A model generated the notes under the pieces. That model did no database searches and had not been told where the DNA came from. It was given only the letters and a program-made list of their open reading frames with translations. From an uncultured Mollicutes bacterium (GTDB lineage: Bacteria > Bacillota_I > Bacilli_A > ML615J-28 > CAG-313), in contig UQBM01000004.1 in the NCBI GenBank assembly GCA_900539265.1, positions 7,982 through 71,981 on the forward strand: a DNA stretch of 64,000 nt. The letters run 5' to 3'. Positions 6,397 to 64,000 of this stretch are shown in pieces. A program made the translations under genes and the position numbers. Every line of letters begins with the position of its first letter. The first letter of the stretch is position 1.

Positions 6397-6398
6397 AA

Positions 6399-7121: not shown

Positions 7122-7122
7122 A

Positions 7123-8634
7123 ATGACAACTAAAGAAGATATTCAAAAAGTCTTATGGAACGCTGCAGGAAGTTTTAGAGGAAAAATTGATAGTGGTAAG
7201 TATAAAGATTATATTTTATCAATGCTTTTCGTAAAATATTTAAGTGATGCGATTAAAGAAACGAAAGAAGAACTTATTAAAAAATATAATGGTGATGAAG
7301 AAAGAATTCAAAGAGCTTTACAAAGAGGAAGATTCTTTGTTCCTGATGAAGCAACATTTGATTACTTATATGATAATAAAAAGGCAACAGATATTGGAAG
7401 TAAAATTAATATTGCTTTAAAGGCAATTGAAAATGCAAATGGCGGTAAATTAAGAAATATCTTTGGCCAAATTGATTTTAATTCTCAAGAACTTGGAGAT
7501 GGAAGAGAGAAGGTTGCATTATTAAGTAACTTCCTTGAAGATTTCAGTTCTATTGATTTAAGACCAAGCCAATTAGAAGGTGTTGATGAAATTGGTAATG
7601 CTTATATGTATATGCTTGCAGTTTTTGCTAGTGATGCAGGTAAAAAAGGTGGCGAATTTTATACACCTGAACAAGTATCAGAAATCCTTGCGAGAGTCGT
7701 AGAACCTAAAGAAAATGATCGTATTTATGATGGTGCTTGTGGTTCTGGTTCTTTATTAATTAAAGCATTCAATCAAGTGTCTAATAGAAAAGCACAAATT
7801 TATGGACAAGAGAGAAACTTCCAAACTTGGGGTTTATGTAGAATGAATATGTTTATTCATAACATCGATGATGCTATTATTTATCAAGGTGATACTATTT
7901 CAAACCCTCAAAATATTGAAGATGGAAAGTTAATGCAATTTCAATGTATAGTTGCAAATCCACCATTCTCATTAGATAAATGGGCAAATGGTTATGCAGC
8001 AGATAGTAATGACAAAGATTTCAAAATGTCAAAAGAACTAGACCCATATAAACGTTTTGATTGGGGTGTTCCACCAAAAAGTAAAGGTGACTATGCTTTC
8101 ATACTTCATATGTTGCATTGTCTTGATGGTAATAATGGTAGAATGGCAATAATTATGCCTCATGGTGTTTTATTCAGAGGAGCAAGTGAAGGCGAAATTA
8201 GAAAGAAACTTATTGATCTTAACTTATTAGATGCTGTAATTGGATTGCCTGCTAACCTTTTCTACGGAACAAGTATTCCTGCTTGTATTCTTGTATTTAA
8301 GAAAAATAGAGCAAATAAAGATGTTGTTTTTATTGATGCATCAAAGGACTTTGAACAAGGTAAAAATCAAAACAAATTAAGACCTGAAGATATTGATAAG
8401 ATTGTATCAACATATAAAGCAAGACAAGAAGTTGAAAAATATTGTCACATAGCAAAAATAGATGAAATTAAGGAAAATGATTATAATTTAAATATTCCTC
8501 GTTATGTAGACACATTTGAAGAAGAAGAACAAATTGACATTCATGCAGTAATGGCAGAAATTAAAGAATTAGAAAAACAAAGAACAGAACTTGATAAAGA
8601 AATAGAGGGTTATCTTAAGGAATTAGGATTATAA
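7123..8634 (+). CDS. hsdM: Type I R-M N6-adenine DNA methyltransferase (HsdM)
   Basis: 503 aa. NPPF catalytic motif (VANPPFS) and an AdoMet-binding-like DGACGSGS motif; HsdM N-terminal domain. Confidence 0.9.
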   Translation: MTTKEDIQKVLWNAAGSFRGKIDSGKYKDYILSMLFVKYLSDAIKETKEELIKKYNGDEERIQRALQRGRFFVPDEATFDYLYDNKKATDIGSKINIALKAIENANGGKLRNIFGQIDFNSQELGDGREKVALLSNFLEDFSSIDLRPSQLEGVDEIGNAYMYMLAVFASDAGKKGGEFYTPEQVSEILARVVEPKENDRIYDGACGSGSLLIKAFNQVSNRKAQIYGQERNFQTWGLCRMNMFIHNIDDAIIYQGDTISNPQNIEDGKLMQFQCIVANPPFSLDKWANGYAADSNDKDFKMSKELDPYKRFDWGVPPKSKGDYAFILHMLHCLDGNNGRMAIIMPHGVLFRGASEGEIRKKLIDLNLLDAVIGLPANLFYGTSIPACILVFKKNRANKDVVFIDASKDFEQGKNQNKLRPEDIDKIVSTYKARQEVEKYCHIAKIDEIKENDYNLNIPRYVDTFEEEEQIDIHAVMAEIKELEKQRTELDKEIEGYLKELGL

Positions 8635-8648
8635 AGAGGTCATGACTA

Positions 8649-9806
8649 ATGAGTGAAAAAACAATCAATAAAGTCCCTAATGTTCCCAATTTAAGATTCT
8701 TCAATGATGACAACACTTGGTCAAATTCATCTCTTGAAAAAAAGTGTAAATTTGTTGGTGGTGGGACACCATCAACATTGAATCAAGATTATTGGAATGG
8801 AGATATTGCATGGATATCATCAGCTGATTTACTTGAAGAAAATGTTCATAAATACAATGTAAGTCGATTCATAACAAAAGAGGCCATAATGAATAGTGCC
8901 ACAAAAATATGTCCTATTAATACGATAATGATAGTGTCGAGAGTTGGTGTGGGAAAAATAGCAATTAGTAATTCTGAAATATGTACTAGTCAAGATTTTA
9001 CAAATCTCACAGAATATCAATTTGATAAAAACTTTTTAGTTTATTCACTTAAAAACACTATAGAAAAACTTAAAAATTCATCTCAAGGAACATCAATAAA
9101 AGGAATTACATCAAAAGAGATAAAGCAAATAAATATCTTCTATCCAGAAATAATCGAACAATGTAAAATAGGATTGTTTTTCAAAAAAATAGATGAACGA
9201 ATAGAGTTTCAAAGCAAAATCATTAACAAACTTGAATCCTTAATATGTACTTTAAGGTCTACAATTTTTAATAGTTATAACTGGGAATGGAATAGATTAG
9301 ATACTTATATTAAATCTGGTATTATTACATTAAAGCGTGGAAACGTTATTCCTAAACATGATGAGGACAGTGAATTTAAATTTCCAGTATATTCGTCATC
9401 AATACATAATAATGGTTTAATGGGTTATAACAATTCATACATGTTTGATAAAGAATTAATTACATGGTCTGTTGATGGTGGTGGAAACTTCTTTTATAGA
9501 CCTAAGCATAAATTTAATGTTACAAATGTCTGTGGAATTATGGAAATAACAGACAATTCATATAATTATAGATTTTTATCAGAAATTCTTTTAGCACAAC
9601 ATTCAAGACTTATATTCGATTATCAAACAAAAGCACACCCTAGTGTTATTGAGAAATTATATAAAATACCCAATGTGGATATAAAAATTCAAGAAAAAAT
9701 AGCTTATATATTTGAGCTTTATTACACAAAGTTACAAAAAGAAAAAGATATACTTTCACTTTATAAAAAGCAAAAAGCATATCTTCTCCAAAATATGTTT
9801 ATATAA
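8649..9806 (+). CDS. hsdS: Type I R-M specificity subunit (HsdS), expressed copy with two TRDs
   Basis: 385 aa. N-terminal KVPNVPNLRF conserved motif; central IDERIEFQSKIINKLESL and C-terminal conserved repeats typical of HsdS. Confidence 0.85.
   Translation: MSEKTINKVPNVPNLRFFNDDNTWSNSSLEKKCKFVGGGTPSTLNQDYWNGDIAWISSADLLEENVHKYNVSRFITKEAIMNSATKICPINTIMIVSRVGVGKIAISNSEICTSQDFTNLTEYQFDKNFLVYSLKNTIEKLKNSSQGTSIKGITSKEIKQINIFYPEIIEQCKIGLFFKKIDERIEFQSKIINKLESLICTLRSTIFNSYNWEWNRLDTYIKSGIITLKRGNVIPKHDEDSEFKFPVYSSSIHNNGLMGYNNSYMFDKELITWSVDGGGNFFYRPKHKFNVTNVCGIMEITDNSYNYRFLSEILLAQHSRLIFDYQTKAHPSVIEKLYKIPNVDIKIQEKIAYIFELYYTKLQKEKDILSLYKKQKAYLLQNMFI
8674..8698. repeat. Inverted repeat IR1, left copy (5' end of expressed hsdS)
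   Basis: TCCCtAATGTTCCCAATTTAAGATT. It is the reverse complement of 10925-10949, with 20 contiguous identical nt plus 4 more after one mismatch, and it encodes the shared PNVPNLRF segment. Confidence 0.8.
9210..9226. repeat. Inverted repeat IR2, left copy (central conserved region of expressed hsdS)
   Basis: CAAAGCAAAATCATTAA. A 17/17 reverse-complement match to 10358-10374, lying between TRD1 and TRD2. Confidence 0.6.
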
Positions 9807-9813
9807 ACATATT
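9792..9813. repeat. Perfect 22-bp palindrome at the tail-to-tail junction of the two hsdS genes
   Basis: AATATGTTTATATAAACATATT is its own reverse complement. It contains the stop codons of both convergent hsdS ORFs, and both end in ...NMFI. Confidence 0.85.
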
Positions 9814-11019
9814 AGCTAATAAATATTTCTTTTGTAAAAGATAGTCATTAAGAATTTGTTCTTCAATGGCTATTTTTTTGTCAAGTGATGTTACGATTAA
9901 AGTAATTTTAGAAATTAATTCCTTATTAGGGATCTTAACTTTAATACCAGTAAGAGTAGATAAGACTATATAAGGCATTGCTCCTACATTTTTTTCACGA
10001 TGTAGTTTTTTAGGAAGTTCAATTTCTAAAGCGAATTTTATATACAATGGATTTTTTATAAAATTTTGCAAAACATATGTTCTCTGATATGCATCAAACT
10101 TACCATTAAAATATTTAATTAATCCAACTTCACCATTTCCAGAAATTATTAACGATTCTCCTTCAAATGAGTATTTGTCTATATAATAATCTTCTTTAGC
10201 ACAAGTGAAGAATTTATATTTACCGTTAGGATTCATAGCATTTGCATCTAATTTTCCAGTTGTAATACTACATAGTTGATTTAAGGATATGTAATCAAAA
10301 TCATTTAAATCATTATAAATAGTATGTAGAATTCTATTTCTATAAGATTTATATTCCTTAATGATTTTGCTTTGGGTTAAAATTCTTTCATCAATCATTG
10401 ATAAGAATTTTCCAATTTTATTTTGTTCTTCTATTGTTGGAGTATAAAGTTTTAAGTTCTTTAGCTCTGGAATTCCAATTCTTTGACGTGTTGATCCGGC
10501 AGTTTTTGAGGCTATTATTTTTCTAATATTTTTTGTGTTAATTTGTTCTCTCATAAAAAGTTTATTACATTTTTTAATATCTAAATTAACTCGTATAGCA
10601 TCGGAACCTAACACATATCTTTTATAAAAATCATGAGCAATACAGCAACGACCTGCAGGCATCATTTTAGCAATAATTAAATCACCTGGATATGCGTTGT
10701 TTGCAATTAAACTATCAGCTTTTTTTACACTTGTGAATATTAATCTTTCAGTAAAATTTAAATAATCTTCTGTTATATTACTTAATTGAATGATAGGAAC
10801 ACCATCCAGCGTATAATCATTTGTCTTTAAATCTGACCCAAAAGGTCCGCCAGCAAAAGATTTTTTTTCATTTGTCGTAAGTAATTCTAGGCTTGTTGTT
10901 GTCCACTCATATATAAATTCAGGAAATCTTAAATTGGGAACATTGGGGATTTTATTCCTTATAATATTTAAAAATTTATTAAATTGACTTATGTATAGGA
11001 GGTAATTAATATGACTCAA
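9799..11019 (-). CDS. hsdS: Inverted silent hsdS cassette, convergent with and overlapping the expressed hsdS
   Basis: 406-aa ORF on the minus strand. It has the IPNVPNLRFP motif, the central IDERILTQSKII motif and the same C-terminal NMFI ending as the expressed hsdS. Its first about 23 codons (upstream of the inverted repeat) are probably not native, and it has no obvious promoter of its own. Confidence 0.75.
   Translation of the reverse strand: MSHINYLLYISQFNKFLNIIRNKIPNVPNLRFPEFIYEWTTTSLELLTTNEKKSFAGGPFGSDLKTNDYTLDGVPIIQLSNITEDYLNFTERLIFTSVKKADSLIANNAYPGDLIIAKMMPAGRCCIAHDFYKRYVLGSDAIRVNLDIKKCNKLFMREQINTKNIRKIIASKTAGSTRQRIGIPELKNLKLYTPTIEEQNKIGKFLSMIDERILTQSKIIKEYKSYRNRILHTIYNDLNDFDYISLNQLCSITTGKLDANAMNPNGKYKFFTCAKEDYYIDKYSFEGESLIISGNGEVGLIKYFNGKFDAYQRTYVLQNFIKNPLYIKFALEIELPKKLHREKNVGAMPYIVLSTLTGIKVKIPNKELISKITLIVTSLDKKIAIEEQILNDYLLQKKYLLANMFI
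10358..10374. repeat. Inverted repeat IR2, right copy (central region of silent hsdS)
   Basis: TTAATGATTTTGCTTTG, the reverse complement of 9210-9226. Confidence 0.6.
10925..10949. repeat. Inverted repeat IR1, right copy (5' end of silent hsdS)
   Basis: AATCTTAAATTGGGAACATTgGGGA, the reverse complement of 8674-8698. Confidence 0.8.
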
Positions 11020-11934
11020 ATTAAATTAAGTCAGATAATTGACTTATGGAAGAAAGACAAAAAGCAATATGTTAAAAAATCAACATATTCTGCATATGTG
11101 CTTTTAGTTAAAAATCATTTATTACCATATTTTGGTGATAAATACGAAGTTGAGGAGTCAGATGTTCAAAAGTTTGTATTTGAAAAATTGGAACAAGGAC
11201 TTAGTCAAAAAACTATTATGGACATTTTGATTGTATTAAAGATGATACTTAAGTTTGGAGTAAAACATAGGTATTTGTCTTGTCGTGAAATTGAAATTAA
11301 ATTCCCCACACAAAGAGAAAATGAGGGACTTGAGGTATTAAGCCGTTCAAATCAAAGAAAAATAATGGATTATATTGAAAAAAATTTTACTTTTAAAAAC
11401 TTAGGCATTTATATTTGTTTGAGTACAGGATTAAGAATAGGAGAATTATGTGCGTTAACATGGGATGATATAGATGAAGATAATGGTGTTATTTTAGTTA
11501 GGAAAACTATTCAAAGAATATATGTTATTGATGATGTTAAAAAAAGAACTGAATTAATTATAGATACACCAAAGACTAAAAATTCGATCAGAGATATTCC
11601 TATGACATCGAATTTAATTAAGATAATTAAACCTATTAAGAAAATTGTAAATAATGAATATTATGTTTTGACTAATGATATTAAACCAACAGAACCTAGA
11701 ACATATAGGAATTATTATAAAAGGTTTATGAAAAAATTTGATATTCCGGATTTAAAGTTTCATGGATTAAGACATAGTTTTGCAACTAGGTGTATTGAAG
11801 GAAAATGTGATTATAAAACTGTTAGCGTTATTTTAGGTCATTCAAATATAAGCACAACATTAAATTTATATGTCCACCCAAATCTTGAACAAAAGAAAAA
11901 ATGTATTAATCAGATGAATAGGTCATTAAGATAA
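11011..11934 (+). CDS. Tyrosine site-specific recombinase (phage-integrase family), putative hsdS invertase
   Basis: 307 aa. C-terminal catalytic signature HGLRHSFAT...LGHSNISTTLNLYVH (R-H-R-Y family). Its start overlaps the 5' end of the inverted hsdS by 9 nt. Confidence 0.85.
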   Translation: MTQIKLSQIIDLWKKDKKQYVKKSTYSAYVLLVKNHLLPYFGDKYEVEESDVQKFVFEKLEQGLSQKTIMDILIVLKMILKFGVKHRYLSCREIEIKFPTQRENEGLEVLSRSNQRKIMDYIEKNFTFKNLGIYICLSTGLRIGELCALTWDDIDEDNGVILVRKTIQRIYVIDDVKKRTELIIDTPKTKNSIRDIPMTSNLIKIIKPIKKIVNNEYYVLTNDIKPTEPRTYRNYYKRFMKKFDIPDLKFHGLRHSFATRCIEGKCDYKTVSVILGHSNISTTLNLYVHPNLEQKKKCINQMNRSLR

Positions 11935-11969
11935 AATATAATTATTCTTCAACTACTGTATTTACTTAT

Positions 11970-11998
11970 TTGAAAAAATAACAAAAAAAGTGTATAAT
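11970..11998 (+). promoter_or_regulatory. Putative sigma-A promoter (TTGAAA, 17 nt, TATAAT) for the DUF262 gene
   Basis: TTGAAA at 11970-11975 and TATAAT at 11993-11998 with 17-nt spacing, 25 nt upstream of the ATG at 12024. Confidence 0.35.
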
Positions 11999-12023
11999 AA
12001 ATATGTGATTGGAGTTGATTAAT

Positions 12024-15000
12024 ATGAAAGATATGTTGTCATTATCAGAATTATTTAATAAGAAGTTATTTAGAATACCAGACTATCAAAGAGGTTATGC
12101 TTGGGAAAAACAACAAGTAGAAGATTTTTGGAATGATTTAATGCTGCTTCATAAAGATAAAGAACATTATACAGGTATGTTATCATTACAAGAAATTAGA
12201 CCTAAATTAGATGATGTTAATTATTATGATTGTATTGATTTAAGAGATACTCATAAAATTTTTCATATTGTTGATGGACAACAAAGATTAACAACTTCAA
12301 TGCTATTAATTAATCAAATTATTAAAATTGATTATAGTAAATATGAACCAAGTATTTTTAATAATGAATTTATAAGTAGCATTAAAGGTAAATATATTTG
12401 TAATAACAAATGTTATGTGTTTGGCTATGAAGTAGATAATCCTAGTTTTGTTTATCTTAAAAATATATTTGGCGAATCAGATCCTACACTAATTAAGGAA
12501 TCAAGATATACAAGAAACTTATCAGTTGCAAGTCATATCTTTGAAGAGAACTTAAAGAAGCTAATAAAAGATAAAGGTGTAAAGGCCGTTGAAGATTTAT
12601 TCTATAAGTTAACAGAAAAGTTACAATTTAATATTCATTATATTAAACATAATTTTGATGTTCACGTTGCTTTTGAAACAATGAATAATCGTGGTAAGAA
12701 ATTGTCCAACTTAGAGATATTAAAGAATAGATTAATATATCTTTCAACTTTATATCCAGATTCAAAAAAAATGAAAGCAAAGAAATTAAATCTACAAAAA
12801 GAAATAAATGATGCTTGGAAAGAAATATATTATAATTTAGGTAAAGATTTAAATAATGAACTAGACGATGATATGTTCTTAAAAGCTCATTGGGCATTAT
12901 ATTTTAAGTTTAGTAAGACTGATTCAGATACATATGTTAATGAATTGTTAAATAAATATTTTATTCCTGCAGCTGTTAATGATTTTATAAGGGAATATAA
13001 TGATAGTGAACTTGATGAAGATGATATAGATTGGAGTGATGATGCACTAACGATTGAAGAAATATCATCATATGTAAAAAGTTTAAGAGAAACATCAAAA
13101 TATTATTATGATACTTTTGTTCCTAATCCTAAACTATCAGAAGAAGAACAAAACTATATTCGTAAACTTAATAGAATAGGTATTGGATATAGTGCATTAC
13201 GAAATTTAGTTGTTGCATCATATTTGGTAAGTAAAGATAAAGATGCAAGTTTTGCTGAAAAACGTATTGAACTATTTAAAGCAATTGAAAGATTTATTTT
13301 CTTATGTTTTAGAACAGCAGGTTTTCAATCATCATATAAAAGTGGAGTATATTATAGATATGCAGGCCAAATGTTACAACCAGAAGGTAACTTATCTATT
13401 GATGCAGTAATTGAAGATATTAATAAAACAGTTGATGATGATATGCCACAAATCATTCAATCGTTTATAACACAATCAAATGGATGGTTTAGTGAAAATA
13501 ATCATTATGGATTCTATGCATGGACCGGATTAAAATACTTTTTATTTGAATATGAAGAATCACTTTTAAATGCATCAACAGGAACAAAGATATCAGGAGA
13601 TAATTACTTTAAGAAAAGTGAAAAAGATAAAGTATCAATTGAACATATTTTTCCACAAACACCTTCAAAATATTATTGGGCTAACCTTTATAGATCATAT
13701 GATAAAGATAATGAAGTTTGGAAACTAGCAGGAACAATAGGTAACTTATTACCTCTTTCAAGTTCTATTAATTCAAGTTTGCAAAATGATTCATTTGAAG
13801 CTAAGGTTAATGGAAGAAAAGGTGCTGTTGGATATGAAATGAATTCATATTCAGCTATTGAAGTATCAAAACACCATAAATGGTTAGAAGAAGATTATCC
13901 ATCATTTAATAAATATTATTTTAGAAATATTGATGAAACTGAATTTGACTGGACACCAGAAAAGATAGAGAGAAGAGGAATACATTTACTTAAATTCTTA
14001 TCTAAAAGATATAATTGTCCTTTAACAGATGAAGATATAATTAGTTTATTGCATATTGATTTTATTCATGATGAAATTAGACAAGCATTACCACCATTAG
14101 AAAAGTATGATGATGATGTCTTTGAAATCACTTCACAAAAAGGATACAATGTTGATAGAGTAAAATACTGGACTGCCTTTGAAGAATATTGTGAAGGTTT
14201 AGGATACGGATTTATGACAACATATGATGATCCTTCTGAAAGAAACTATTTTGACTTGAGATATCAAGAAGATTTTAACTATGTATTTAAAGTAAATCGT
14301 AATGGAATTGAATTCTGTTTATATTGCTATACTCCAACAGTTTACTCAAAAATGGCTTCAATTAAAAATGAGCTAGAAGAAGCTTTAGGATGTGAATTTG
14401 TTTGGGATTTAAGCAAGGCTAATTCACTTGCTAAAAGAATTTCATTATTTAAGGATATTGATTATTCTAAATCAAATAACTGGGATGAATGTTTCGAATG
14501 GTATATTGAATGTTTTAATAGTATAAAGGACATATTGTTATTACATTTTCCTGTTAAAAAACAAAGCGGTACAATGAGTGTTGATGAACATTTATTAACT
14601 AAACCAGAAAAAATGAGTAAAATCTATAAAGAGATTTATGGAAAAGTAAAAGACAAAATTAGTGATTTTTATGAAGTTGCTACAAATCCATACATTGCGT
14701 TTAGAACAAACAAGAATGATAACTTTGCTGAAATATGGATTCAACGTTCACAAATTAAAGTGATGTTACGTTCAAACGAAGTAGGATATCCTGTAGGTTC
14801 TAAAGTTGGAGATTCATATAGATGGACACACAACTGGAGAATTGCTTTAGTCAGTGAGAAACAAATAGACGAAGTTGTAGCATGTATTTTAATCAGTTAT
14901 TATTCAATTGATAATAATGTAGAAATGATGAATAAAATTAAGGACAATATAAATCATATAACTGATTTTGATTTACAACAGTCAAATACATTTGAAAGAG

Positions 15001-15245
15001 GGGAAGTATTTTCTTTTGTGAAATGTGGAATACCAGCTGGAGCAGAACTAGAATACATTTATGATCCTTCTATAAAATGTACAGTTTATGATGAAAGAAA
15101 GATTAATTATAATGGTGAAATAATGTATATGACTACATTAGTAAAACAAATAACAAAAATACCATCACCAAATGGACCATCATATTTTAGTTATAATGGA
15201 AAAAATCTTTCTGAATATTATATTGAATATCAATCAAAGAAATAA
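12024..15245 (+). CDS. GmrSD-like Type IV (modification-dependent) restriction protein: DUF262 + DUF1524 with a long C-terminal extension
   Basis: 1073 aa from the ATG at 12024 (the ORF track's TTG at 12009 lacks an RBS; GGAG lies 9 nt upstream of the ATG). The N-terminus has IPDYQRGYAW and DGQQRLTT (DUF262/ParB-like NTPase hallmarks). Mid-protein SIEHIFPQTP matches the DUF1524 His-Me finger motif. About 450 aa of additional C-terminal sequence has unknown function. Confidence 0.8.
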   Translation: MKDMLSLSELFNKKLFRIPDYQRGYAWEKQQVEDFWNDLMLLHKDKEHYTGMLSLQEIRPKLDDVNYYDCIDLRDTHKIFHIVDGQQRLTTSMLLINQIIKIDYSKYEPSIFNNEFISSIKGKYICNNKCYVFGYEVDNPSFVYLKNIFGESDPTLIKESRYTRNLSVASHIFEENLKKLIKDKGVKAVEDLFYKLTEKLQFNIHYIKHNFDVHVAFETMNNRGKKLSNLEILKNRLIYLSTLYPDSKKMKAKKLNLQKEINDAWKEIYYNLGKDLNNELDDDMFLKAHWALYFKFSKTDSDTYVNELLNKYFIPAAVNDFIREYNDSELDEDDIDWSDDALTIEEISSYVKSLRETSKYYYDTFVPNPKLSEEEQNYIRKLNRIGIGYSALRNLVVASYLVSKDKDASFAEKRIELFKAIERFIFLCFRTAGFQSSYKSGVYYRYAGQMLQPEGNLSIDAVIEDINKTVDDDMPQIIQSFITQSNGWFSENNHYGFYAWTGLKYFLFEYEESLLNASTGTKISGDNYFKKSEKDKVSIEHIFPQTPSKYYWANLYRSYDKDNEVWKLAGTIGNLLPLSSSINSSLQNDSFEAKVNGRKGAVGYEMNSYSAIEVSKHHKWLEEDYPSFNKYYFRNIDETEFDWTPEKIERRGIHLLKFLSKRYNCPLTDEDIISLLHIDFIHDEIRQALPPLEKYDDDVFEITSQKGYNVDRVKYWTAFEEYCEGLGYGFMTTYDDPSERNYFDLRYQEDFNYVFKVNRNGIEFCLYCYTPTVYSKMASIKNELEEALGCEFVWDLSKANSLAKRISLFKDIDYSKSNNWDECFEWYIECFNSIKDILLLHFPVKKQSGTMSVDEHLLTKPEKMSKIYKEIYGKVKDKISDFYEVATNPYIAFRTNKNDNFAEIWIQRSQIKVMLRSNEVGYPVGSKVGDSYRWTHNWRIALVSEKQIDEVVACILISYYSIDNNVEMMNKIKDNINHITDFDLQQSNTFERGEVFSFVKCGIPAGAELEYIYDPSIKCTVYDERKINYNGEIMYMTTLVKQITKIPSPNGPSYFSYNGKNLSEYYIEYQSKK

Positions 15246-36064: not shown

Positions 36065-36194
36065 TTTAACTCCTTAAAAATTTATAATTTAATATTTAAT
36101 TTTATTATAACATAACTTTTTATATTATTTGCAAAAGATGATGAAATTTGTTATACTAAATAAGCAAAGATATGTAAAATGTGAGGTAAAAGTT

Positions 36195-37970
36195 ATGAAA
36201 TTCAATTTTAAAAATCGAGTGAGAAATTTTAAACTATCAACAACTGATTCTTTTGTTCCTTTGTTTGAGGCAATTACAAATTCTATTCAAGCGATTGAAG
36301 AAAGAGGATATTTTAATAATCAATTTATCAAAATTAAAATTGAAAGAGATAGTTATCGCATAACTGATTTTACTTCTGGCATTTTTGCAATAGAAATTAC
36401 AGATAATGGTATTGGATTTGTGGAACATAACTATGAATCTTTTATAACAAGCGATTCTGATTACAAAGTAGAAATTGGGGGAAAAGGGGTAGGTAGAATT
36501 AATTGGTTAAAAGCCTTTGAAATGATTTTTGTTAAAAGTGTCTTTGAGGAAAATGGTAAGAAATATTTAAGAAGTTTTCAATTTAATATTGATGATGAAA
36601 TTCATAATGAAATCTTAGAAGAAGTATCAAGCGATGTAGAAATTGCAACAACAATTACCTTGCGTAACTTAAATCAAGAATATCGACCAGTTACAGAGAT
36701 TTCCCTTAAAGAAATAGCTAATAAAATTATTGAACATTTCGCTACTTATTTTGTAATCGGTTCAATGCCAAAGATGGAAATAGAAGATGAAATTGACTTG
36801 ATTGATTTAAATGAATTTTTTGAAAAAGAAAAATTTATTAAAACTCAAAGTCAAAGCATCACATCTAATAATTCATTATTTAATATTAGACATGTTTTTT
36901 TAAATGCTTCGACTGCTTCAAAACATAAAATATATATATGTGCTCAAAATAGAGTAGTTTGTAGTTATGATATTGCTAATATTGAGGATTTACCAACGGT
37001 TTTTAATCTTAATGGTCAAAAAGCTATTTATCAATGTTATGTTAGTGGTGCTTTTTTAGATAAAGATGTGAATAGCGAAAGAACTTATTTTAGTAATGTT
37101 ATTTTTGAAGATGAAAAAGATTTAGATAGACCACATTTTGAATTAGCCATTAATTTATATGAACTTGTTTACAATGAAATTAATCTTTTTTTGAAGGACT
37201 ACTTGCAACCAATGATTATTTTAAGGGATAATCAAGTAATTGACTATATTGATTCTTATTGCCCTCAATATAAATATCTAACTAAATATGCCTCTGATGA
37301 ACTTAAAAATATTTCTTATTCAGTGGCTTCTAATAAAGATAAGTTGTCAATAGAGTTAAGTCGTTTAAATTTAAAGTTTAACCAAAAAAACCATGATAAA
37401 ATTAACAAAACTCTTCAAGATGCAACCCTTAATGCAAAAGATAAACTTTTAAATTTAGTAGTTCCTCTTTGTGAAAATCTGCATAGTGAATTTGCTAATT
37501 TTGTTTTAAAAAGAGCGGTTGCGGGAGAGATTTTAGAAAGACTTTTGACCTTTGATTTAAGTTTAGATGAACTTATCGATAAATACTTTGTCCCTTATAA
37601 AGAGGCTACTTCTGATGTTAGTAATTTGTGGATTATTGATGAAAATTTAGCATATCCTTACCAAAGAATAAGTTTATTACAAGATAACTATTTTTATGTT
37701 TATCAAGATGATAACACTAAATCTTATATTGCAATTTCTTTTGAGGATCCTTTTGAAATTCAGTTCAATCAAACCAATAATCCAGTTAAAAGACTTAATG
37801 ATAATTTAAATAAAATGATGATTAATAAAAATTATAAACTTACTAAATATTTAATTGTTAGTGATTCTTTTGGTATTATAGCAGAAGGTTTAGCAGATGA
37901 GCAAGTCATCTTATTATCGTATCAAGATTTGATTAAGTATTTAAAATTAAGAAAAAATAGTTTTCAGTAG
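36195..37970 (+). CDS. Orphan GHKL/Bergerat-fold ATPase (HATPase_c_3/MORC-like N-domain) with an uncharacterised C-terminal 400 aa
   Basis: 591 aa from the ATG at 36195 (GAGGTAAAAG RBS; the ORF-track start at 36129 is an upstream extension). Ordered GHKL boxes: N-box FEAITNSIQAIEE, G1 box ITDNGIGF, G2 box GGKGVGRINWLKAFE. No kinase HisKA domain and no partner genes in an operon. Confidence 0.7.
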   Translation: MKFNFKNRVRNFKLSTTDSFVPLFEAITNSIQAIEERGYFNNQFIKIKIERDSYRITDFTSGIFAIEITDNGIGFVEHNYESFITSDSDYKVEIGGKGVGRINWLKAFEMIFVKSVFEENGKKYLRSFQFNIDDEIHNEILEEVSSDVEIATTITLRNLNQEYRPVTEISLKEIANKIIEHFATYFVIGSMPKMEIEDEIDLIDLNEFFEKEKFIKTQSQSITSNNSLFNIRHVFLNASTASKHKIYICAQNRVVCSYDIANIEDLPTVFNLNGQKAIYQCYVSGAFLDKDVNSERTYFSNVIFEDEKDLDRPHFELAINLYELVYNEINLFLKDYLQPMIILRDNQVIDYIDSYCPQYKYLTKYASDELKNISYSVASNKDKLSIELSRLNLKFNQKNHDKINKTLQDATLNAKDKLLNLVVPLCENLHSEFANFVLKRAVAGEILERLLTFDLSLDELIDKYFVPYKEATSDVSNLWIIDENLAYPYQRISLLQDNYFYVYQDDNTKSYIAISFEDPFEIQFNQTNNPVKRLNDNLNKMMINKNYKLTKYLIVSDSFGIIAEGLADEQVILLSYQDLIKYLKLRKNSFQ

Positions 37971-48778: not shown

Positions 48779-49576
48779 TTGATGGCAAAAATAGTCTTAA
48801 AAAGAAAAAAATCAGATAAGGATACATATTTAGTTCGCAATGTAAAAAGTGCATATGGTGAATTAAAATATGATGATACTTTATTAGAAGAAGATCAAAT
48901 AGTTGAGCCAGTAGGAAAAATTCATGAGGAAGCATTAAAACAAGAATTAATTCTTAATGAGGCGCATAAACAAAAAATAGAAGAAGAAAAACGCCTTGTT
49001 GAAGAAAAAGCAAAAAAAGAAGAAGAGAAACGCCTTGCTGAAGAAAAAGCAAAAAAAGAAGAAGAAGAGAAACGTCTTGCTGAAGAAAAAGCAAAAAAAG
49101 AAGAAGAGAAACGCCTTGCTGAAGAAAAAGCAAAAAAAGAAGAAGAGAAACGCCTTGTTGAAGAAAAAGCAAAAAAAGAAGAAGAAGAAAAACGCCTTGC
49201 TGAAGAAAAAGCCCATATGGAAGAACTTCGAAGACAACAAGTTAGTGTAGCAGAAGTTAAAGAGATTATATCTGATGAGACTGCTAGCATTTTAATTGAA
49301 AAAGAGTTTGATGAAGAGAAGATTTTTGGGAACAAAAAGGGAATTATTAATATTGATATAATATCACGTAACTTTAAAGCTGGTGATATTGTTACAGTAA
49401 ATACTTTAAAAGATAAAAAATTAATTGACAAAAATATTTGTTTTGTTAAAGTTCTTGCAAGAGGAGTTATTGATAAACCATTAGTTGTAAAAGCACAAGA
49501 TTTTTCCTTAGATGCAGTTAAAATGATTCAACTTACAGGTGGTAAGGTCGTATTATTAGATAAAAAGAAATATTAA
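48779..49576 (+). CDS. uL15 (ribosomal protein L15)-like C-terminal domain protein with Glu/Lys-rich tandem repeats
   Basis: 265 aa. The C-terminus GIINIDIISRNFKAGDIVTVNTLKDKKLI...VKVLARGVIDKPLVVKAQDFSLDAVKMIQLTGGKVVLL aligns with the uL15 C-terminus (..vNLdkL....eG.evt.e.L...gli.......vKiLGnG.l.kkltVkA.kfS.sA.e.ie.aGG..evi). The middle carries about 6 copies of EE(E)KRLAEEKAKKE. Confidence 0.55.
   Translation: MMAKIVLKRKKSDKDTYLVRNVKSAYGELKYDDTLLEEDQIVEPVGKIHEEALKQELILNEAHKQKIEEEKRLVEEKAKKEEEKRLAEEKAKKEEEEKRLAEEKAKKEEEKRLAEEKAKKEEEKRLVEEKAKKEEEEKRLAEEKAHMEELRRQQVSVAEVKEIISDETASILIEKEFDEEKIFGNKKGIINIDIISRNFKAGDIVTVNTLKDKKLIDKNICFVKVLARGVIDKPLVVKAQDFSLDAVKMIQLTGGKVVLLDKKKY
48980..49212 (+). 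repeat. Near-perfect 39/42-bp tandem repeat (about 6 copies) inside the uL15-like CDS
   Basis: Unit GAAGAAGAGAAACGCCTTGCTGAAGAAAAAGCAAAAAAA. Copies at 48980, 49019, 49058 (42 nt), 49100, 49139 and 49178 (partial), with only 1-3 substitutions per copy. Confidence 0.9.
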
Positions 49577-54150: not shown

Positions 54151-54179
54151 AGTCTCTATGAAAAATAGAGACTTTTTTG
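54151..54179 (+). terminator. Rho-independent terminator after tuf
   Basis: AGTCTCTA-tgaaaaa-TAGAGACT followed by TTTTTT. Confidence 0.7.
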
Positions 54180-54486
54180 TTTTTTAATTTTCATCAATCT
54201 ATATAAATTGTTAATTTTAATTGTATAATTTATATAAATAAATATATTTTGATTTTAGAAAAGACAAAAAAAAACAAAATTCGATATATAAATGATGTAT
54301 AATTTTTTGAAGAATTATATGATAAAAATAATAAACTATAATTTATTTAATAATCGATGAAAAGTAAAGATGTATATATGCTAAATCTAACAAATATCAT
54401 ATTTAAATATTATAAAATTCTTTTGGTTTAGACTTGTCATTTTAAAAATTTATAAAATATGTCAATTTTAGGAGGTAAATTATATA

Positions 54487-55002
54487 ATGACAAAAAAAAG
54501 TATAAGTTTAATAGTAATTTTTGTTTTCTTTTTTAGCATATGCGGTTGTAATAAACAAAATAAAATAGATTATAATTTAAGTTATAATCAAAATGAGGCA
54601 TTTGGTTACAAAAAACTAGAAAAAGGTACACAACTTTATAGTAATGGTTTAATAAAATCATTAGAAGAATTAAAAAAGGAATGTACTGAATGGAACAATG
54701 ATGCTTATAATGAAAGTTCGGATGGGTATTCTAGTGATTTGAATCAAAAACTAAGAGATTATGATGAGAACTATTTTAAAGAAAATGCTCTCATTATAGT
54801 TACATATGAAACGGCCAATTACCTTAAAACAAAACTTAAACACATTATTGTTGATGGATCTACCTTAATCGTAAATATCAAACAAACAACTAAAATAGGA
54901 AATTATAGTACGGAGGCCTATTTTTGGTCAATGTTAATTGAGATTAAAAAGAATGACATAATCAATGTCGATGAACTAAAGGTTAATTGTAATAAAAGGT
55001 GA
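54487..55002 (+). CDS. Small lipoprotein, unknown function
   Basis: 171 aa. Signal peptide with lipobox SICGC. GGAGG RBS. Confidence 0.55.
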   Translation: MTKKSISLIVIFVFFFSICGCNKQNKIDYNLSYNQNEAFGYKKLEKGTQLYSNGLIKSLEELKKECTEWNNDAYNESSDGYSSDLNQKLRDYDENYFKENALIIVTYETANYLKTKLKHIIVDGSTLIVNIKQTTKIGNYSTEAYFWSMLIEIKKNDIINVDELKVNCNKR

Positions 55003-55007
55003 TAAAT

Positions 55008-56226
55008 ATGAAGAAAAGAATTTTAACTATAGTATTATTTTTATTTTTTTCAATAGTTTTAAGTTAAAATACTGTAAAACTATTTGCATATGAAGATTCT
55101 AGCAATTTAAGTATAAATCAAGTATATTTATCAAATTTATCTCAAAGCATGAAAATATACTCTCAAATTATACTTGAATTTCAAGTTAGAACAGATTTTC
55201 ATAATAATAAAGAATATATGATTTATAACGAAAATTATGCTGGAGCATATATAGATGATACTGGAATGTTAAATATAGCAGTGGTAAATAATAATTCAGT
55301 TAATTATATGTCAAGTAATCATAGTCAAGTTATTTATCAAGAGTTTACCTATTCGTACAATTTTCTTCAAAAAGTATTAAATTCAATTGAAGATATTATG
55401 CTAGAAAGTAGTGTTTATATTGTAGGTATTGATGATGAATTAAATCATGTTTTTGTTGAATTAAATGATGAAACAGATGTAGAGGTTGTTATTCAACATC
55501 TACAAAATGAAGAGTTGTATGAACCTAATGCATTATATTTTGAAGTAGATTCTGATGGTGGATTGTCAGAAACATCAAATATAACTTATGGTGGTGAATC
55601 AATTTTTCATAGATATACAACGGGAATTATATCTAGAGGTACATTTGTGGTTAACGCTGTTTGTAATGATACGGGAAGACTTGGAGTCTTAACTAATGCA
55701 CATGTGGCACCATATGATACAACAATGAGTTATGGTGGGTATTGGGATGAATCAATAAGTAGTTTTACTGAAGAAATCTTCTTAGGGACGGCTTCAAAAT
55801 CGAGACAACGATTCAATGTGTATATAAAGAAGATCCTTCAATTATAGCTACATTAGATATAAAGGTCGTTGAAGATACAAGTACAATAAAAGTTAGATTA
55901 AAATATGGATTTGATATTCGAGAAGATGGTACAATTAGTGGAACAGAAGTTACTAGTGGTTTAGGTAATGTAATTGAGGTAGCACAATTTCCAGATGTAA
56001 CGATACATAAAGGTTATACTAGACTTATTTGTTTAGGTGATGATAGCCCAAATTCGAGTATTCAAGCATTTACATGGACTGCATATCAAGAAGAAGGAGA
56101 TAACGGCATGGTTACTGTAAGTTCATTTGACACCATTCAAGGTACTGTTTCTGGATGGGTTACAGTGAAGGGTGTATATCAATATAATAGTAACTATGAA
56201 GTATATATTAAAATTTATGTAGAATA
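55008..56226 (+). pseudogene. Secreted trypsin-like (S1B/glutamyl-endopeptidase-like) serine protease pseudogene: signal peptide, in-frame TAA, body, then frameshift
   Basis: ATG at 55008 encodes the signal peptide MKKRILTIVLFLFFSIVLS and is followed by an in-frame TAA (55065-55067). The same frame stays open to 55847 and contains GTFVVNAVCNDTGRLGVLTNAHV (the S1B His-motif context). A second frame, open from 55772 to 56226, overlaps by about 75 nt and continues the protein (...LICLGDDSPNSS...) with no start codon. Confidence 0.45.
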
Positions 56227-56242
56227 AAAATATTTCATTGAA

Positions 56243-56277
56243 AGGATTAGTAAATTATGAAAATACTAATCCTTTTT
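56243..56277 (+). terminator. Rho-independent terminator after the protease pseudogene
   Basis: AGGATTAGTA-aattatgaaaa-TACTAATCCT followed by TTTTT. Confidence 0.6.
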
Positions 56278-56495
56278 ATATTATTTTTTAATCATTTTAT
56301 TAGTAGAATATATTACTAAAAAATATAAAATATGACGAATTTAATTAAATATTTTAAAAAATTTTAAAATCAAAAAAAGTAAAAAAATGCAATGTAAGCG
56401 ATTTCCTTATTATATTTAATAAAAAAATAAAAAAATATTATATACTATTATCATCATTTAAAAAATGATAATATGTATGGACAAGGAGGATTACA

Positions 56496-58103
56496 GTGAA
56501 AAGAAGAGTTATGTTTATTCTTTTAAGTTTTGGATTATTGATGATGTTAACTTCATGTTTTATGGCAACAGAAATAGTAAGCGTGAAATTATCATCAACT
56601 GATGTTCCGAAACTATTTGAAGTAAATGAATCATTTGATATTAAAGATCTTCAATTAGAAGTAACATATAATGATGGTAAAGTCTTTAATGTAATGGTAG
56701 ATGAATCAATGATAACTAACTTTGATTTAACAACTATTGGATTTAAAAAGGCTATAATCAACTACAAAGATTTTACATTAACATATGATTACCAAGTAGT
56801 GGAAACCAAATATCTAGTTGTAAAATTTAATACAGATGAAGAATTACCTGAAATTGAGGATCAATTAGTTTATTATGGTGATATGGTAAAAAAACCTAAT
56901 GATCCTAAAAAAGAAGGCTTTGAGTTTTTAGGTTGGTATATTGGCGATGTTATCTATGATTTTAATAGTAAAGTTAATACAAATTTAGAACTTGTAGCAA
57001 AATTTAGAAAAACCTTAAATGTTTATCAGACAGAGGTAGTATTGGCATTAGAAGAATTTGCAAATAAATTTGACTCAAGATTATATCGCGAGGATGAATT
57101 TGTAGAAATTCTTACAATAATTGAAGATGGAAAAAGAGCAATTGCTGAAGCAACTACGAATGAAGAGGTAGATTTAGCCTATAATCAAACGGTTGAAAAA
57201 GTAAAGGCAATAAAAAACTTCTGTAGTTTATTTTTAGATGTATTTGCAACTTACAATATTGATGATTATTATAGTGAAGAGTGGGAAAAAATACTTGCAA
57301 TAAGAGATTTAACTGTTGATACACTTAATAATTATAAGGGTGGAGCACCATTACCAATTGCAACTTATTTAAAAGGTCTTGATGATTTAACAAAAGTTGT
57401 AACTAAAGATCAAGATCATGAACTTGCAACTTATTTAAAAACAAATAAAATAATGGAACTAAATAAGTATTTCACAAATATGAATAAAGAATATTATACA
57501 GATGATGCTCTTGAGTTAATGAATACTATATTAGAAGAGGGTATTGATACAATAAATTTAGCACTTAGTAGAAAAGATGTTGTTGATGCTTACTTAGTAG
57601 TTATTGAAACATTAGATAGTGTTGAAAAATGCCCTAAATATAATGATATTTTAGAACTTTTAGCATATATTGATGTTTTAAACTTGAATAATTATTATGC
57701 CGTTCAACAAGAAGAGTTAAAAGATATATATTTTGAATATGCAAATATTTTAAGAAATATGCCATTAAATGAGGATACAACTACTTTGTTAGAAGAAGCA
57801 AAGATGAAAATGGATGAAGTTATAACAATAGAAGAAGATAAGGTTATAGCTGATATTCTTTTGGAAAAATGTTTAGCAGATTTTAATAATTTGTATGAAA
57901 CTCTTCTTGCTACGTATGCAGAAGAAATTAATGCTTTAGAGATGGCAGAGTATGCACTTGAAGAAATTGAAATGACTTATCAAAATTATGTTGACAAAAT
58001 TAGCACAGCTTTGGGATCTGCTGCTATTCAAGTAGCTTATGATGAGGCAGTAGCATATTTGGAAGAAGATATTTTAATGATTATTGAAATGTATAGTTGG
58101 TAA
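56496..58103 (+). CDS. Lipoprotein with a Listeria-Bacteroides (Flg_new/InlB B-repeat) domain
   Basis: 535 aa. Lipobox MMLTSC. GDMVKKPNDPKKEGFEFLGWYIGDVIYDFNSKVNTNLELVAKF matches the Listeria-Bacteroides repeat (P..P.+.Gy.F.GWy.......fdf...i.....L.AkW). Confidence 0.65.
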   Translation: MKRRVMFILLSFGLLMMLTSCFMATEIVSVKLSSTDVPKLFEVNESFDIKDLQLEVTYNDGKVFNVMVDESMITNFDLTTIGFKKAIINYKDFTLTYDYQVVETKYLVVKFNTDEELPEIEDQLVYYGDMVKKPNDPKKEGFEFLGWYIGDVIYDFNSKVNTNLELVAKFRKTLNVYQTEVVLALEEFANKFDSRLYREDEFVEILTIIEDGKRAIAEATTNEEVDLAYNQTVEKVKAIKNFCSLFLDVFATYNIDDYYSEEWEKILAIRDLTVDTLNNYKGGAPLPIATYLKGLDDLTKVVTKDQDHELATYLKTNKIMELNKYFTNMNKEYYTDDALELMNTILEEGIDTINLALSRKDVVDAYLVVIETLDSVEKCPKYNDILELLAYIDVLNLNNYYAVQQEELKDIYFEYANILRNMPLNEDTTTLLEEAKMKMDEVITIEEDKVIADILLEKCLADFNNLYETLLATYAEEINALEMAEYALEEIEMTYQNYVDKISTALGSAAIQVAYDEAVAYLEEDILMIIEMYSW

Positions 58104-58117
58104 TGGGAGGAAAAAAG

Positions 58118-61100
58118 ATGAAGATTAAAAAAATAATTAGTTTATCCATTGCAACATTTATATTAGTATTATCAATTTTTGGTTTATGTTCATGTGGTGA
58201 TAATACAAGTAATTCACCAAAAATTGAAAATACGCGCCCTACTTTTTCGCAAATTTCTAATTTTAAGTTAGATAATTTGAAAAAGTATGAAAATAGTGCT
58301 TATCAATTTCATCTCTTTGATGATAATGATGAAGTATGGGTTATTATTGAATTAGAAGGAAAATCTTTAATAGAAGAATATAATGATTGCAAATTTGTTG
58401 GTTCTTTAGCCGAATTTGCTTCGACTAAAGATGGTGAGAATACGATTAATAGATTACTTACTATTCAAAGTAGAGTAAAAGAATTATTAGATGAAAATGA
58501 AATTAAATATGAATTTAAGCATTCATATACAACATTATTAAATGGATTAGGTATTAAGGTTAGATATAAAGATATTAAAACAATATCATCACTTGCAAAA
58601 GTAAAAGAAGTAGCAATTTCAGAGTTATATAATATGCCACAAGAGGAATCATCATATGATGTTGCTTTAAAGGAAACTGGTATTCTTGCTACAAGCAGTA
58701 ATTATAAAGGTGAGGGAATGATAGTGGCTATTCTTGATACAGGTCTTGATACTAATCATCAAGCATTCCAAAAACCATTGACGGATGTTGCTTTAACATA
58801 CCAAAATATTGCCAGTATTAGTGAATACTTATATCCTAATGTTGCAAATGGAGGAAATTATTATCAGGCAGACCAATTATATAAGAGTTCAAAGATTCCT
58901 TATGGTTTTGATTATGCTGATATGGATGAATTTGTTGATCCTGGTTATATGGCAGTTAATTATTATGGTCATGGAGCTCATGGTACTCATGTTGCAGGAA
59001 TAATTGCTGGAGATGATGATCAAATCACTGGCGTTGCGCCAAACGCTCAACTTGCTATAATGAAAGTTTTTTCTGATAATGTGCCAGGAGCTTATACAAC
59101 TGATATTATAGCTGCTTTAGGAGATTGTGCTCTTCTTGGTGTTGATGCGATTAATATGTCACTTGGTTCTGCTAATGGTTTTACCTCAGAAGGAGATGGA
59201 GGAGAATTCATTGATGAAGTCTATGATTTATTAGGTTCAGTAGGTATTAATGTTTGTGTGGCTGTTGGTAATGATGGTGAAGCAGGAGATGGTACGATTT
59301 ATGGTAATGGTGCAAGTTCTAATCCTGATAATGGTTTAGTAGGCTCACCTTCTTCATATGATGCATCATTTGGAGTTGCATCATCAGATGCTATTTTAAA
59401 AGACTATTTTGTATCAGCAAATACTAATATGACTTTTAACTCAGCTGTTTTTGCAGCAACCTCTGAATCATATCCTTTTTATGAAGCATTACCTTTTGAG
59501 AAAGGAAGCAGAACATTATCTTTGCCATATGTTGTTGTTCCTAATTATGGTGATATAGAAGATTATGAGGGATTAGATGTAGAAGGTAAAATTGCGGTAG
59601 TATCAAGGGGTTCAACATCATTTGAATATAAGTCACTTGTGGCTGCATACTATGGAGCTATTGCGTGTATTATTTATAATAATGAACCAGGTGAAATTAG
59701 AGCCTCTATTGAAGGAGAATTGTATATTCCAACATGTACAATAACTGTCGATTCTGGATCGGTTTTAACAAAAGTTAAAGAAGGAATTATTCATTTTAAT
59801 ATGGATAATAAAATTCACGAAATGTCGAGTTTTTCTTCAATTGGACCACTTCCAAATCTTGAACTAAAACCTGAAATTACTGCTCCAGGTGGATATATTT
59901 ATTCTTCAGTTCCAACCATTACTCAAGATGAAAATGGTAACGAAATTTCATATGCATATTTTAGTGGTACTTCAATGGCTTCCCCTAATTTAGCAGGAGC
60001 AGCTTTACTTGTAAGACAAGCATTGAAAGAAAACTATCCTCAAATGACTGAAACTGAACTTCAAGCAAGAGTATATCAAGTTTTAATGTCTACAGCAAAT
60101 ATTATTAAGGATGAAAATGGTATACCATCTACTCCACGTAAACAAGGATCAGGATTAGTTAATATAGATGCGGCCTTAAATACTAGTGCTTACTTAAGTG
60201 TTGCTGGAAGCGATAGAGCAAAACTTGAATTAGGTGATGACCCAAGTCGTGATGGTATTTATTATATGAGTTTTGATGTTGTTAATACGGGAACAACAAA
60301 ATTATCCTATAATTTGGATAGTATTGTAATGACTGATAGTGTTGATGATGCAGGTCGTATTTTAGAAAAAGCATATTTGCTTGAAGCAAGTCAAAGAGAT
60401 TATATGGTAGAAAATGGTACTTATGAAAATGGTGTATTAACAGTTGATGCTAATTCAGTTGCGAAAATTACAGTAAGGATTTTCCTAACTGATGATGATA
60501 AGGCATATTTAGATAACAACTTTGTTAATGGTATGTATGTTGAAGGATATATTACTTTAGATGCTGTTGATCATAATATAGATCTTTCGATTCCATGGTT
60601 AGCCTTTTATGGTGATTGGGATGATGCACCTATTTTCGATTCAACCTATTACGATGAAACGTATGAAATTTATCCAACAATTCCATTAGGACTATATATT
60701 TCTGGAATGTTGGGATATCCGTTCCCACTTGGTAGTTATGAATTGTTCGTATTACCAGATGGATATGAGGCACCACTTGCATCCGCAGATAAGATTGCTT
60801 TAAATTATGATGGTAATAATTTATTATATTCAGTTGCAATTGGTCTTTTAAGAAGTGTTAAGGAATTAAGATATGAAATTGTTGATAAGTATACACGTCA
60901 ATCGTATTTTAATGGCTATGCAATAAATGTAGGTAAAACATATTTAAATGATAGTGGAGAACTTGTTCCTACGCAACATGAGTTAAATATTGAAATTCCA
61001 CAATTTTTAGTGGGTAGTAATCAAGAACTAGAAATTGTAATTACAGGGGTTCTTGATACAATTGATCAAAAAGAGGAATCTTTAGTAATTCCACTTACAC

Positions 61101-64000: not shown

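Follow-up and report, generated by a model that had tools for sequence, protein, structure and literature searches.

In a 64,000-nucleotide stretch of DNA from an uncultured Mollicutes bacterium (contig UQBM01000004.1; the whole of this stretch is referred to as the window), a giant gene that starts at position 58118 is predicted to encode an intact, catalytically complete subtilase of the cell-envelope proteinase (CEP) type, which is joined to four modules of BspA-type leucine-rich repeats (LRR) of the LRR_5 family and exported with a lipoprotein signal. This S8-LRR protein is an ordinary member of a family and not a one-off; the family, found in gut Bacillota, is very large and appears to be unstudied. 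Proteins of this design abound in gut Bacillota, and the adjacency of an Opp-type oligopeptide importer in most of the relatives points to protein foraging. We consider it rather probable that the protein is a secreted, catalytically competent CEP-type subtilase, tied by a linker to four LRR_5 binding modules, and that the peptides that it releases feed the cell.

Reading frame and completion of the gene

An earlier note on this DNA, written from its letters alone, had described a single giant gene for a surface protease with an S8 catalytic triad, a PA insert of the CEP type, an Fn3-like region, a BspA-type LRR_5 array and an N-terminal lipobox in place of LPXTG. It had advised completing the gene from downstream sequence, mapping its domains and searching its true C-terminus for sortase or S-layer signals, and had named a stop codon or frameshift in the interval 58.1-64.0 kb as the finding that would split the gene in two. 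The present analysis upholds this picture of the gene and its product. Translation of 58118-64000 (+ strand, as for all parts of the gene given below) yielded one uninterrupted frame of 1961 codons with zero stops, and no overlapping open reading frame (ORF) of at least 100 amino acids was found there on either strand. A ribosome-binding site, GGGAGG (58105-58110), lies 7 nt 5' of the ATG at 58118, and a gap of 14 nt separates this ATG from the stop of the upstream gene at 58103.

The gene runs past the window edge, with 1961 of its 2070 codons inside the window. Its final 109 codons and stop were supplied by the public Logan contig L001, which differs from the window at two of 10,019 overlapping bases (99.98% DNA identity) and extends the frame to a TAA stop, giving the full-length protein P0001 of 2070 amino acids. 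Behind this stop, L001 has a terminator-like hairpin of 17 bp and a T-run. The GC content of the gene is 30.4%, that of the whole window 28.8%. Full-length homologues that are collinear with P0001 over their entire length number 21 (alignment A1). The looked-for stop codon or frameshift at 58.1-64.0 kb was absent, and with the 21 collinear homologues this rules out a split into separate protease and LRR genes.

The protease unit

The domain order of the protein is a signal peptide, a tether, a predicted I9-like propeptide, an S8 domain that contains a PA insert, three Fn3-like domains, a linker and four LRR_5 modules; the Pfam map names Peptidase_S8, PA, fn3_5 and LRR_5 among them. The Peptidase_S8 catalytic domain occupies residues 198-679 (58709-60154; E 6e-45, 154 bits against a cut-off of 21.8). 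Its motifs place the catalytic residues in the Asp-His-Ser order of the S8 family, with DTG, HGTH and GTSMA-type signatures and the oxyanion Asn: Asp207 in ILDTGLD (58736-58738), His288 in HGTHVAG (58979-58981), Asn385 in VGNDG (59270-59272) and Ser619 in SGTSMASP (59972-59974). All four are invariant across the 21 homologues of alignment A1. The PA domain (residues 472-548, 59531-59761; Pfam E 3.6e-12, 46.7 bits against a cut-off of 23.9) is inserted within the S8 domain between His288 and Ser619, and was found in 21 of 21 homologues.

Behind the catalytic domain, Pfam and an AlphaFold2 model of residues 27-1150 (mean predicted local distance difference test score, pLDDT, 84.6; predicted template modelling score 0.81) delineate three Fn3-like beta-sandwiches at residues ~691-832, 854-963 and 970-1103 (60188-61429). 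Pfam fn3_5 matches the first of them at residues 716-827, and all three are modelled as all-beta domains with pLDDT of ~85-95. When the model of the protease unit was searched with Foldseek, about 1000 columns aligned with ScpB (8bty; E 4e-57), ScpA (3eif) and SpyCEP (6vjb). This agrees with the sequence search of the PDB, in which residues ~192-847 matched SpyCEP (E 2e-63) and ScpA (E 4e-43); together with ScpB, these are the closest solved relatives. A disordered Thr/Asn-rich linker of ~45 amino acids (residues 1105-1150, 61430-61567; pLDDT 24-30) separates the protease unit from the repeats; it is the least conserved part of the protein in comparison with the 88%-identical orthologue P0002 (71% identity, versus 92-94% for the catalytic domain and 82-88% for the LRR and Fn-1 regions).

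The LRR_5 modules

The repeat region extends from 61568 to the window edge at 64000 and beyond it, and is matched by Pfam LRR_5 in nine stretches (E 3e-97). It consists of repeated units of ~22-24 residues that fit the LRR_5 profile, arranged in four modules, each of which a 'G(V/T)LY..' cap opens (residues ~1153, 1432, 1763 and 1940); the fourth module and a conserved C-terminal cap, which ends at residue 2070, continue outside the window. AlphaFold2 modelled residues 1151-2070 as a beta-solenoid with a pLDDT of 92.8, and the best Foldseek matches of this model were 4gt6, PcpA (4cp6), 4fs7, 4h09 and TpLRR (6mlx). No tandem repeats were found in the DNA of the LRR region, and hence no sign of recent repeat amplification; the modules are taken to be old on this account.

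Anchoring and maturation

Residues 1-26 (58118-58195) form a lipoprotein signal peptide by a PROSITE PS51257-type pattern match, composed of MKIKK, a hydrophobic core and the lipobox LVLSIFGLCSC (G-L-C-S-C), in which Cys26 is the predicted lipidated residue. Cys26 is shared by at least 90% of the full-length homologues in alignment A1, and P0002 has the canonical LSSC. After the lipid-bearing Cys comes a tether of about 40 residues (27-66; 58196-58315) that is disordered in the AlphaFold2 model (pLDDT below 50), and then a predicted I9-like propeptide at residues ~72-172 (58331-58633). The model of this domain (pLDDT 88-95) has the matching secondary structure, a beta-alpha-beta-beta-alpha-beta fold, and its sequence contains the motif YTTLLNG..V.Y.DI. 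The Pfam Inhibitor_I9 match of P0001 itself is weak (E 0.056, residues 120-166), and 12 of the 21 homologues match this profile, the best with E 1.6e-5. Residues 173-190 (58634-58687), of which 177-184 are disordered in the model, form the junction with the catalytic domain and the presumed region of autoprocessing.

The complete 2070-residue protein contains no LPXTG-like motif, no SLH domain, and no C-terminal hydrophobic segment or membrane helix, so that the search for sortase or S-layer signals at its C-terminus gave a negative answer. The propeptide of a subtilase is normally cut off on maturation. Anchoring through the lipobox would not be equivalent to LPXTG anchoring, because the lipid anchor is N-terminal to the I9-like propeptide, a point that the earlier note had overlooked: with Cys26 on the propeptide side and no second anchor, the mature enzyme would lose its covalent anchor after activation.

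Size and distribution of the family

The earlier note had called the combination of S8 and LRR domains uncommon, a view that did not hold. A protein search returned 3702 matches with E<=1e-10, and the best 120 of them all carry both Peptidase_S8 and LRR_5, nearly all with PA and most with fn3_5. These 120 proteins are 1460-3159 amino acids long (all but two exceed 2000), come mainly from gut metagenome assemblies and have no database label beyond 'leucine-rich repeat protein'. When one genome per GTDB species was scanned, at least 569 relatives were identified in Clostridia and Bacilli; the best 80 of these align from about residue 1 to beyond 2000 wherever the contig is complete, and the highest identity among the species-representative matches listed is 42%. 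In addition, the Fn-2/3 segment alone (residues 841-1104), for which Pfam gives no match, retrieved 134 clusters at 50% identity in a phmmer search; most of these are 2000-2900-residue proteins with the match at the same position.

The hosts of the relatives include uncultured Clostridia (Christensenellaceae, Oscillospiraceae, Faecousia, Acutalibacteraceae and Gallimonas) as well as metagenome-assembled genomes (MAGs) of Bacilli and Anaeroplasmataceae; a cultured host is Anaerocaecibacter muris. Some genomes encode several S8-LRR proteins, at least five in UMGS692 and at least three in STF1_14. In UMGS692, two paralogues lie in tandem within a few kb of each other on L007 (7992-14246 and 16768-22233), and another two are divergent on L010 (1071-6767 on the - strand and 7791-14075); such pairs indicate local duplication of these giant genes. 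Full-text searches yielded no description of an S8-LRR_5 fusion in the library searched, and the sole paper that mentions both Pfam names has them in separate proteins. On RF39 in connection with oligopeptide uptake, proteases and auxotrophy, nothing but analogous pairs of a protease with Opp from other bacteria came up.

Opp linkage and subgroups of the family

For the analysis of genomic context, all ORFs of 81 homologous loci were clustered, and the components of the importer were confirmed by Pfam. In 57 of the 81 loci, an Opp-type oligopeptide ABC importer adjoins the homologue on the same strand. It is composed of an unusually long substrate-binding lipoprotein of ~860 amino acids (SBP_bac_5), two permeases (BPD_transp_1, and OppC_N with BPD_transp_1) and ATPases (ABC_tran with oligo_HPY). 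The importer genes are placed either downstream or upstream of the protease gene, and the linkage extends over Clostridia as well as Bacilli genomes. A further lipoprotein of ~440 amino acids, with weak Flg_new and Peptidase_M26_N-like matches, is encoded at 41 loci, in the common gene order directly after the protease gene. The conserved S8-LRR/Opp block, seen among loci L012-L081 (for example L044:7848-22000 and L078:7959-22500), looks like an undescribed locus for protein or peptide utilisation.

In a midpoint-rooted neighbour-joining tree of the protease-Fn region, calculated without support values, the Opp-linked proteins (2300-2960 amino acids) form one clade, and nearly all unlinked members inside this clade are on truncated contigs or at loci with short flanks. 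The window protein groups with that of L005, among deep, long-branched proteins of ~2000-2140 amino acids that have no Opp neighbours even where 7-8 kb of flanking sequence is available on both sides. A BLAST comparison of the window ORFs with the set of neighbours detected no Opp genes and no other conserved partner in the 64-kb window, and the 10 kb downstream on L001 were likewise free of Opp genes.

The two groups also differ at their termini. Of 56 Opp-linked proteins, 40 have a hydrophobic segment among their last 70 residues, in most cases with a K/R-rich tail behind it, and a few carry LPxT-like signals. Among the 11 full-length proteins of the short subgroup, ten match the lipobox pattern, the eleventh (L008, ...LTCVAC) being a near-miss, and ten lack a C-terminal hydrophobic segment, L011 being the exception. 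The window's subgroup, which is shorter, deeper-branching and rich in paralogues, has probably given up the Opp linkage together with the C-terminal membrane anchor, and its substrate range may for this reason be specialised. Its only conserved neighbours are a Flg_new lipoprotein (three loci) and an upstream ORF of ~170-190 amino acids. The latter was seen in L004 and L007-L011 (L004:2118-2618, L008:1566-2135, L009:718-1254, L010:6898-7383 and L011:3640-4179) and is absent from the window locus.

Comparison with known systems

The streptococcal enzymes ScpA, ScpB and SpyCEP (also ScpC/CepA; 3eif, 8bty, 6vjb and 7edd) have in common with the S8-LRR protein an S8 domain with a PA insert and three subsequent Fn3-like domains, and their N-terminal propeptide has a predicted counterpart in it. 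The Foldseek alignment has a template modelling score of 0.64 when normalised to the target; the identity is only ~22%, and the narrow substrate specificity of these enzymes is not transferable to the S8-LRR protein. They carry a C-terminal LPXTG/sortase anchor and no LRR, in contrast to the S8-LRR protein with its lipobox, its lack of LPXTG and its 920 LRR_5 residues. The best NCBIfam match is NF040553, which comprises the LPXTG-anchored serine peptidases SGO_0316/SGO_0317 (residues 101-845, E 5e-73). At 246.6 bits against a cut-off of 1400, and without LPXTG, the S8-LRR protein is not a member. Each of its domains belongs to a known family, and its sequence places the whole protein outside the LPXTG-anchored ScpA/SGO_0316 group.

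Lactocepin, the PrtP of lactococci and lactobacilli, is another CEP-type S8 protease with a PA insert, and PrtP and Opp form a functional pairing in casein utilisation. This pairing resembles the main S8-LRR clade, with its 57 linked loci, whereas the window copy is not Opp-linked. PrtP further differs by its C-terminal wall anchor, its need for the maturase PrtM and its A, B and H domains in place of LRR_5. The BspA-type LRR proteins, namely BspA of T. forsythia, PcpA of S. pneumoniae, TpLRR of T. pallidum and the structural-genomics proteins 4gt6, 4fs7 and 4h09 of gut commensals, have the same repeat family and fold; they are stand-alone binders with 200-450 residues per LRR domain, whereas in the S8-LRR protein four modules are fused to a protease. 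Dentilisin (PrtP) of Treponema denticola is a surface lipoprotein subtilase, with retention by an N-terminal lipid and with accessory lipoproteins. It is the enzyme of a diderm spirochaete, much smaller, and has no PA/Fn3/LRR_5 architecture.

Surface-protein genes around the S8-LRR gene

The gene upstream of the S8-LRR gene (56496-58103, + strand) encodes a 535-residue lipoprotein with one Flg_new domain and a long helical region (Pfam). No terminator-like site was found on the + strand at 54173-58400, and the two genes are probably co-transcribed; a promoter scan was uninformative, with 34 sites against 38 expected from shuffled sequence. The 535-residue lipoprotein is a possible accessory partner of the protease, and full-length homologues of it are encoded beside S8-LRR paralogues in L016 (E 2e-32) and L006. 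We rejected a relation of it to the ~440-residue lipoprotein of the Opp loci, as the two have only the Flg_new motif in common, and this not significantly. No gene resembling PrsA or PrtM was seen beside the S8-LRR gene, the neighbour being this helical Flg_new lipoprotein.

The S8-LRR gene is the third of five lipoprotein genes identified on the + strand, whose start positions are 54487, 56496 and 58118 within the window and L001:10548 and L001:13113 beyond it, with the lipoboxes FSICGC, MLTSC, GLCSC, FISC and LVSC, respectively. The two downstream genes encode, by Pfam, a 770-residue protein with FMN_bind, Flg_new and LRR_5 domains (L001:10548-12860, + strand) and a 2037-residue protein that combines six Flg_new repeats with Big_2 and with a peptidoglycan amidase domain, Amidase_2 (L001:13113-19226, + strand). 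By their predicted products, the five genes would form a surface-protein island, broken only by a possible decayed gene at 55149.

The interruption (55149-56495, + strand) contains a 232-residue ORF without a Pfam match, whose motif 'GVLTNAHV' is like the His region of S1 (streptogrisin/V8-type) proteases. Its 3' side is occupied by ~650 bp with no long ORF, in which another frame continues as '...CLGDDSPNS...', and L001 is identical there. The segment possibly represents a second protease gene that has decayed or undergone a frameshift.

Functional interpretation and alternatives

Compared with the breakdown of polysaccharides, that of proteins by gut Bacillota is poorly mapped. The S8-LRR family has hundreds of species-level representatives, often in several copies per genome, and its Opp linkage yields a testable hypothesis on the amino-acid supply of uncultured, probably auxotrophic, low-GC gut lineages. 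The topology of the anchor, with a lipid before the propeptide and nothing after it, poses the question of whether the active enzyme is surface-bound or shed, which bears on its contribution to faecal protease activity and to the degradation of host proteins. The greater value of these observations is at the family level, where the main clade is coupled to Opp and the subgroup of the window gene shows a switch of anchor.

In the reading that we favour, the precursor would be exported by Sec and lipidated on Cys26, and the zymogen, inhibited by its propeptide, would hang from the membrane by the ~40-residue tether. Autoprocessing near residues 173-190, as subtilase biology leads us to expect, would then yield a mature enzyme of ~205 kDa that is either shed or held non-covalently through contacts of the propeptide or the LRR. 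The LRR modules would dock the enzyme onto protein substrates or surfaces, and the released peptides would nourish the cell, for which PrtP/Opp of lactococci is the paradigm. The role in peptide supply is proposed because the sister clade is Opp-coupled and PrtP/Opp offers a precedent, and the argument is weaker for the window copy, in which the linkage is lost. An intracellular M32 carboxypeptidase encoded in the window also counts in favour of a nutritional role.

Several points weigh against this interpretation. On the context analysis, the window gene has no Opp linkage of its own, and a nutritional role would be carried over to it from the sister clade, which was delimited in a tree without support values. 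The closest solved relatives, ScpA, ScpB and SpyCEP, are narrow-specificity proteases of immune evasion and not nutritional enzymes. For P0001, the predicted I9 propeptide combines a weak Pfam match with a modelled fold, and the lipobox and transmembrane calls are regular-expression and hydropathy heuristics applied to ORFs begun at the first Met.

A more far-reaching version of this interpretation can be put forward only tentatively, and we think it rather unlikely in its full form. According to it, the short subgroup would be a 'release-on-activation' protease that derives from a C-terminally membrane-anchored, Opp-coupled nutritional CEP by loss of anchor and linkage, followed by multiplication of paralogues. 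The lipid on Cys26 would hold the zymogen only, autoprocessing would shed the soluble ~205-kDa enzyme, and the four LRR modules would bring this enzyme to one specific protein, situated on the host, on food particles or on another microbe. The Opp-linked clade would in parallel represent an undescribed 'protein utilisation locus' that is widespread in gut Bacillota, made up of the CEP, an accessory lipoprotein, an unusually large binding protein of 860 residues, and the Opp permeases and ATPases.

Another reading takes up the suggestion of the earlier note that the protease is directed at a host or partner surface. The protein would be a targeted protease of virulence or colonisation, whose LRR would adhere to a host or partner surface molecule and whose subtilase would cut one or a few specific surface or immune proteins, as ScpA cuts C5a and SpyCEP IL-8. 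The nearest relatives in structure and sequence are ScpA, ScpB and SpyCEP, and those of the LRR_5 region include the adhesins PcpA and TpLRR. The Opp-less, long-branched subgroup with its expanded paralogues, and the position of the gene within a run of surface-lipoprotein genes, are likewise consistent with such a role. The LRR and Fn-1 regions diverge somewhat faster than the catalytic domain in comparison with P0002, but the difference between domains is modest. However, no target was identified, the sequence gives no means of telling a narrow specificity from a broad one, the sister clade is tied to the uptake of peptides, and the source is a MAG lineage of the gut commensal type and not a known pathogen. 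We therefore regard a targeted protease as an unlikely, if serious, alternative to the supply of peptides.

More doubtful still is a role in the processing or shedding of surface proteins, in which the enzyme would mature or trim the products of the neighbouring genes (the Flg_new lipoprotein, the LRR_5 protein and the giant amidase) or remodel the envelope of the organism itself, with the LRR binding these partners. Its position among five consecutive lipoprotein genes, the LRR_5 repeats of the downstream neighbour and the recurrence of the 535-residue lipoprotein beside paralogues in L006 and L016 would fit, but this partner was found in three loci only, and most paralogues of the short subgroup have unrelated surroundings in which no neighbouring surface protein is conserved. 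We know of no precedent in the ScpA/PrtP group for surface-protein processing as the main role, and we consider this explanation quite improbable. Finally, a non-enzymatic adhesin (pseudo-protease) or an artefact of assembly or annotation that joins a protease to an LRR gene, considered as giant ORFs at contig edges can be chimeric or decayed, found no support and is refuted by the invariant D207, H288, N385 and S619, the frame free of stops and frameshifts, the same gene in an independent assembly with two substitutions in 10 kb, and at least 80 collinear homologues in independent genomes.

Other genes of the window

The remaining window is ordinary chromosome that encodes, among others, HtpG, FTHFS, CarB, the M32 carboxypeptidase and rpsL-rpsG-fusA-tuf. 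Among named relatives, its EF-G comes closest to those of 'Bacilli bacterium' MAGs (83-85% identity). Just upstream of rpsL-rpsG-fusA-tuf, a 265-residue ORF (48779-49576, + strand) combines near-perfect KE-rich tandem repeats, EEKRLAEEKAKKEEE, with a domain of the Ribosomal_L27A/uL15 type at its C-terminus (Pfam E 1.2e-11); for a ribosomal-protein fold, such a fusion is odd. A 613-residue ORF at 36129-37970 (+ strand) has no Pfam match at E<=1e-5. A defence cluster at 3295-15245 contains a type I restriction-modification system, with HsdR at 3295-6396 and HsdM at 7123-8634, and a 1078-residue GmrSD-type endonuclease with a DUF4268 domain at 12009-15245.

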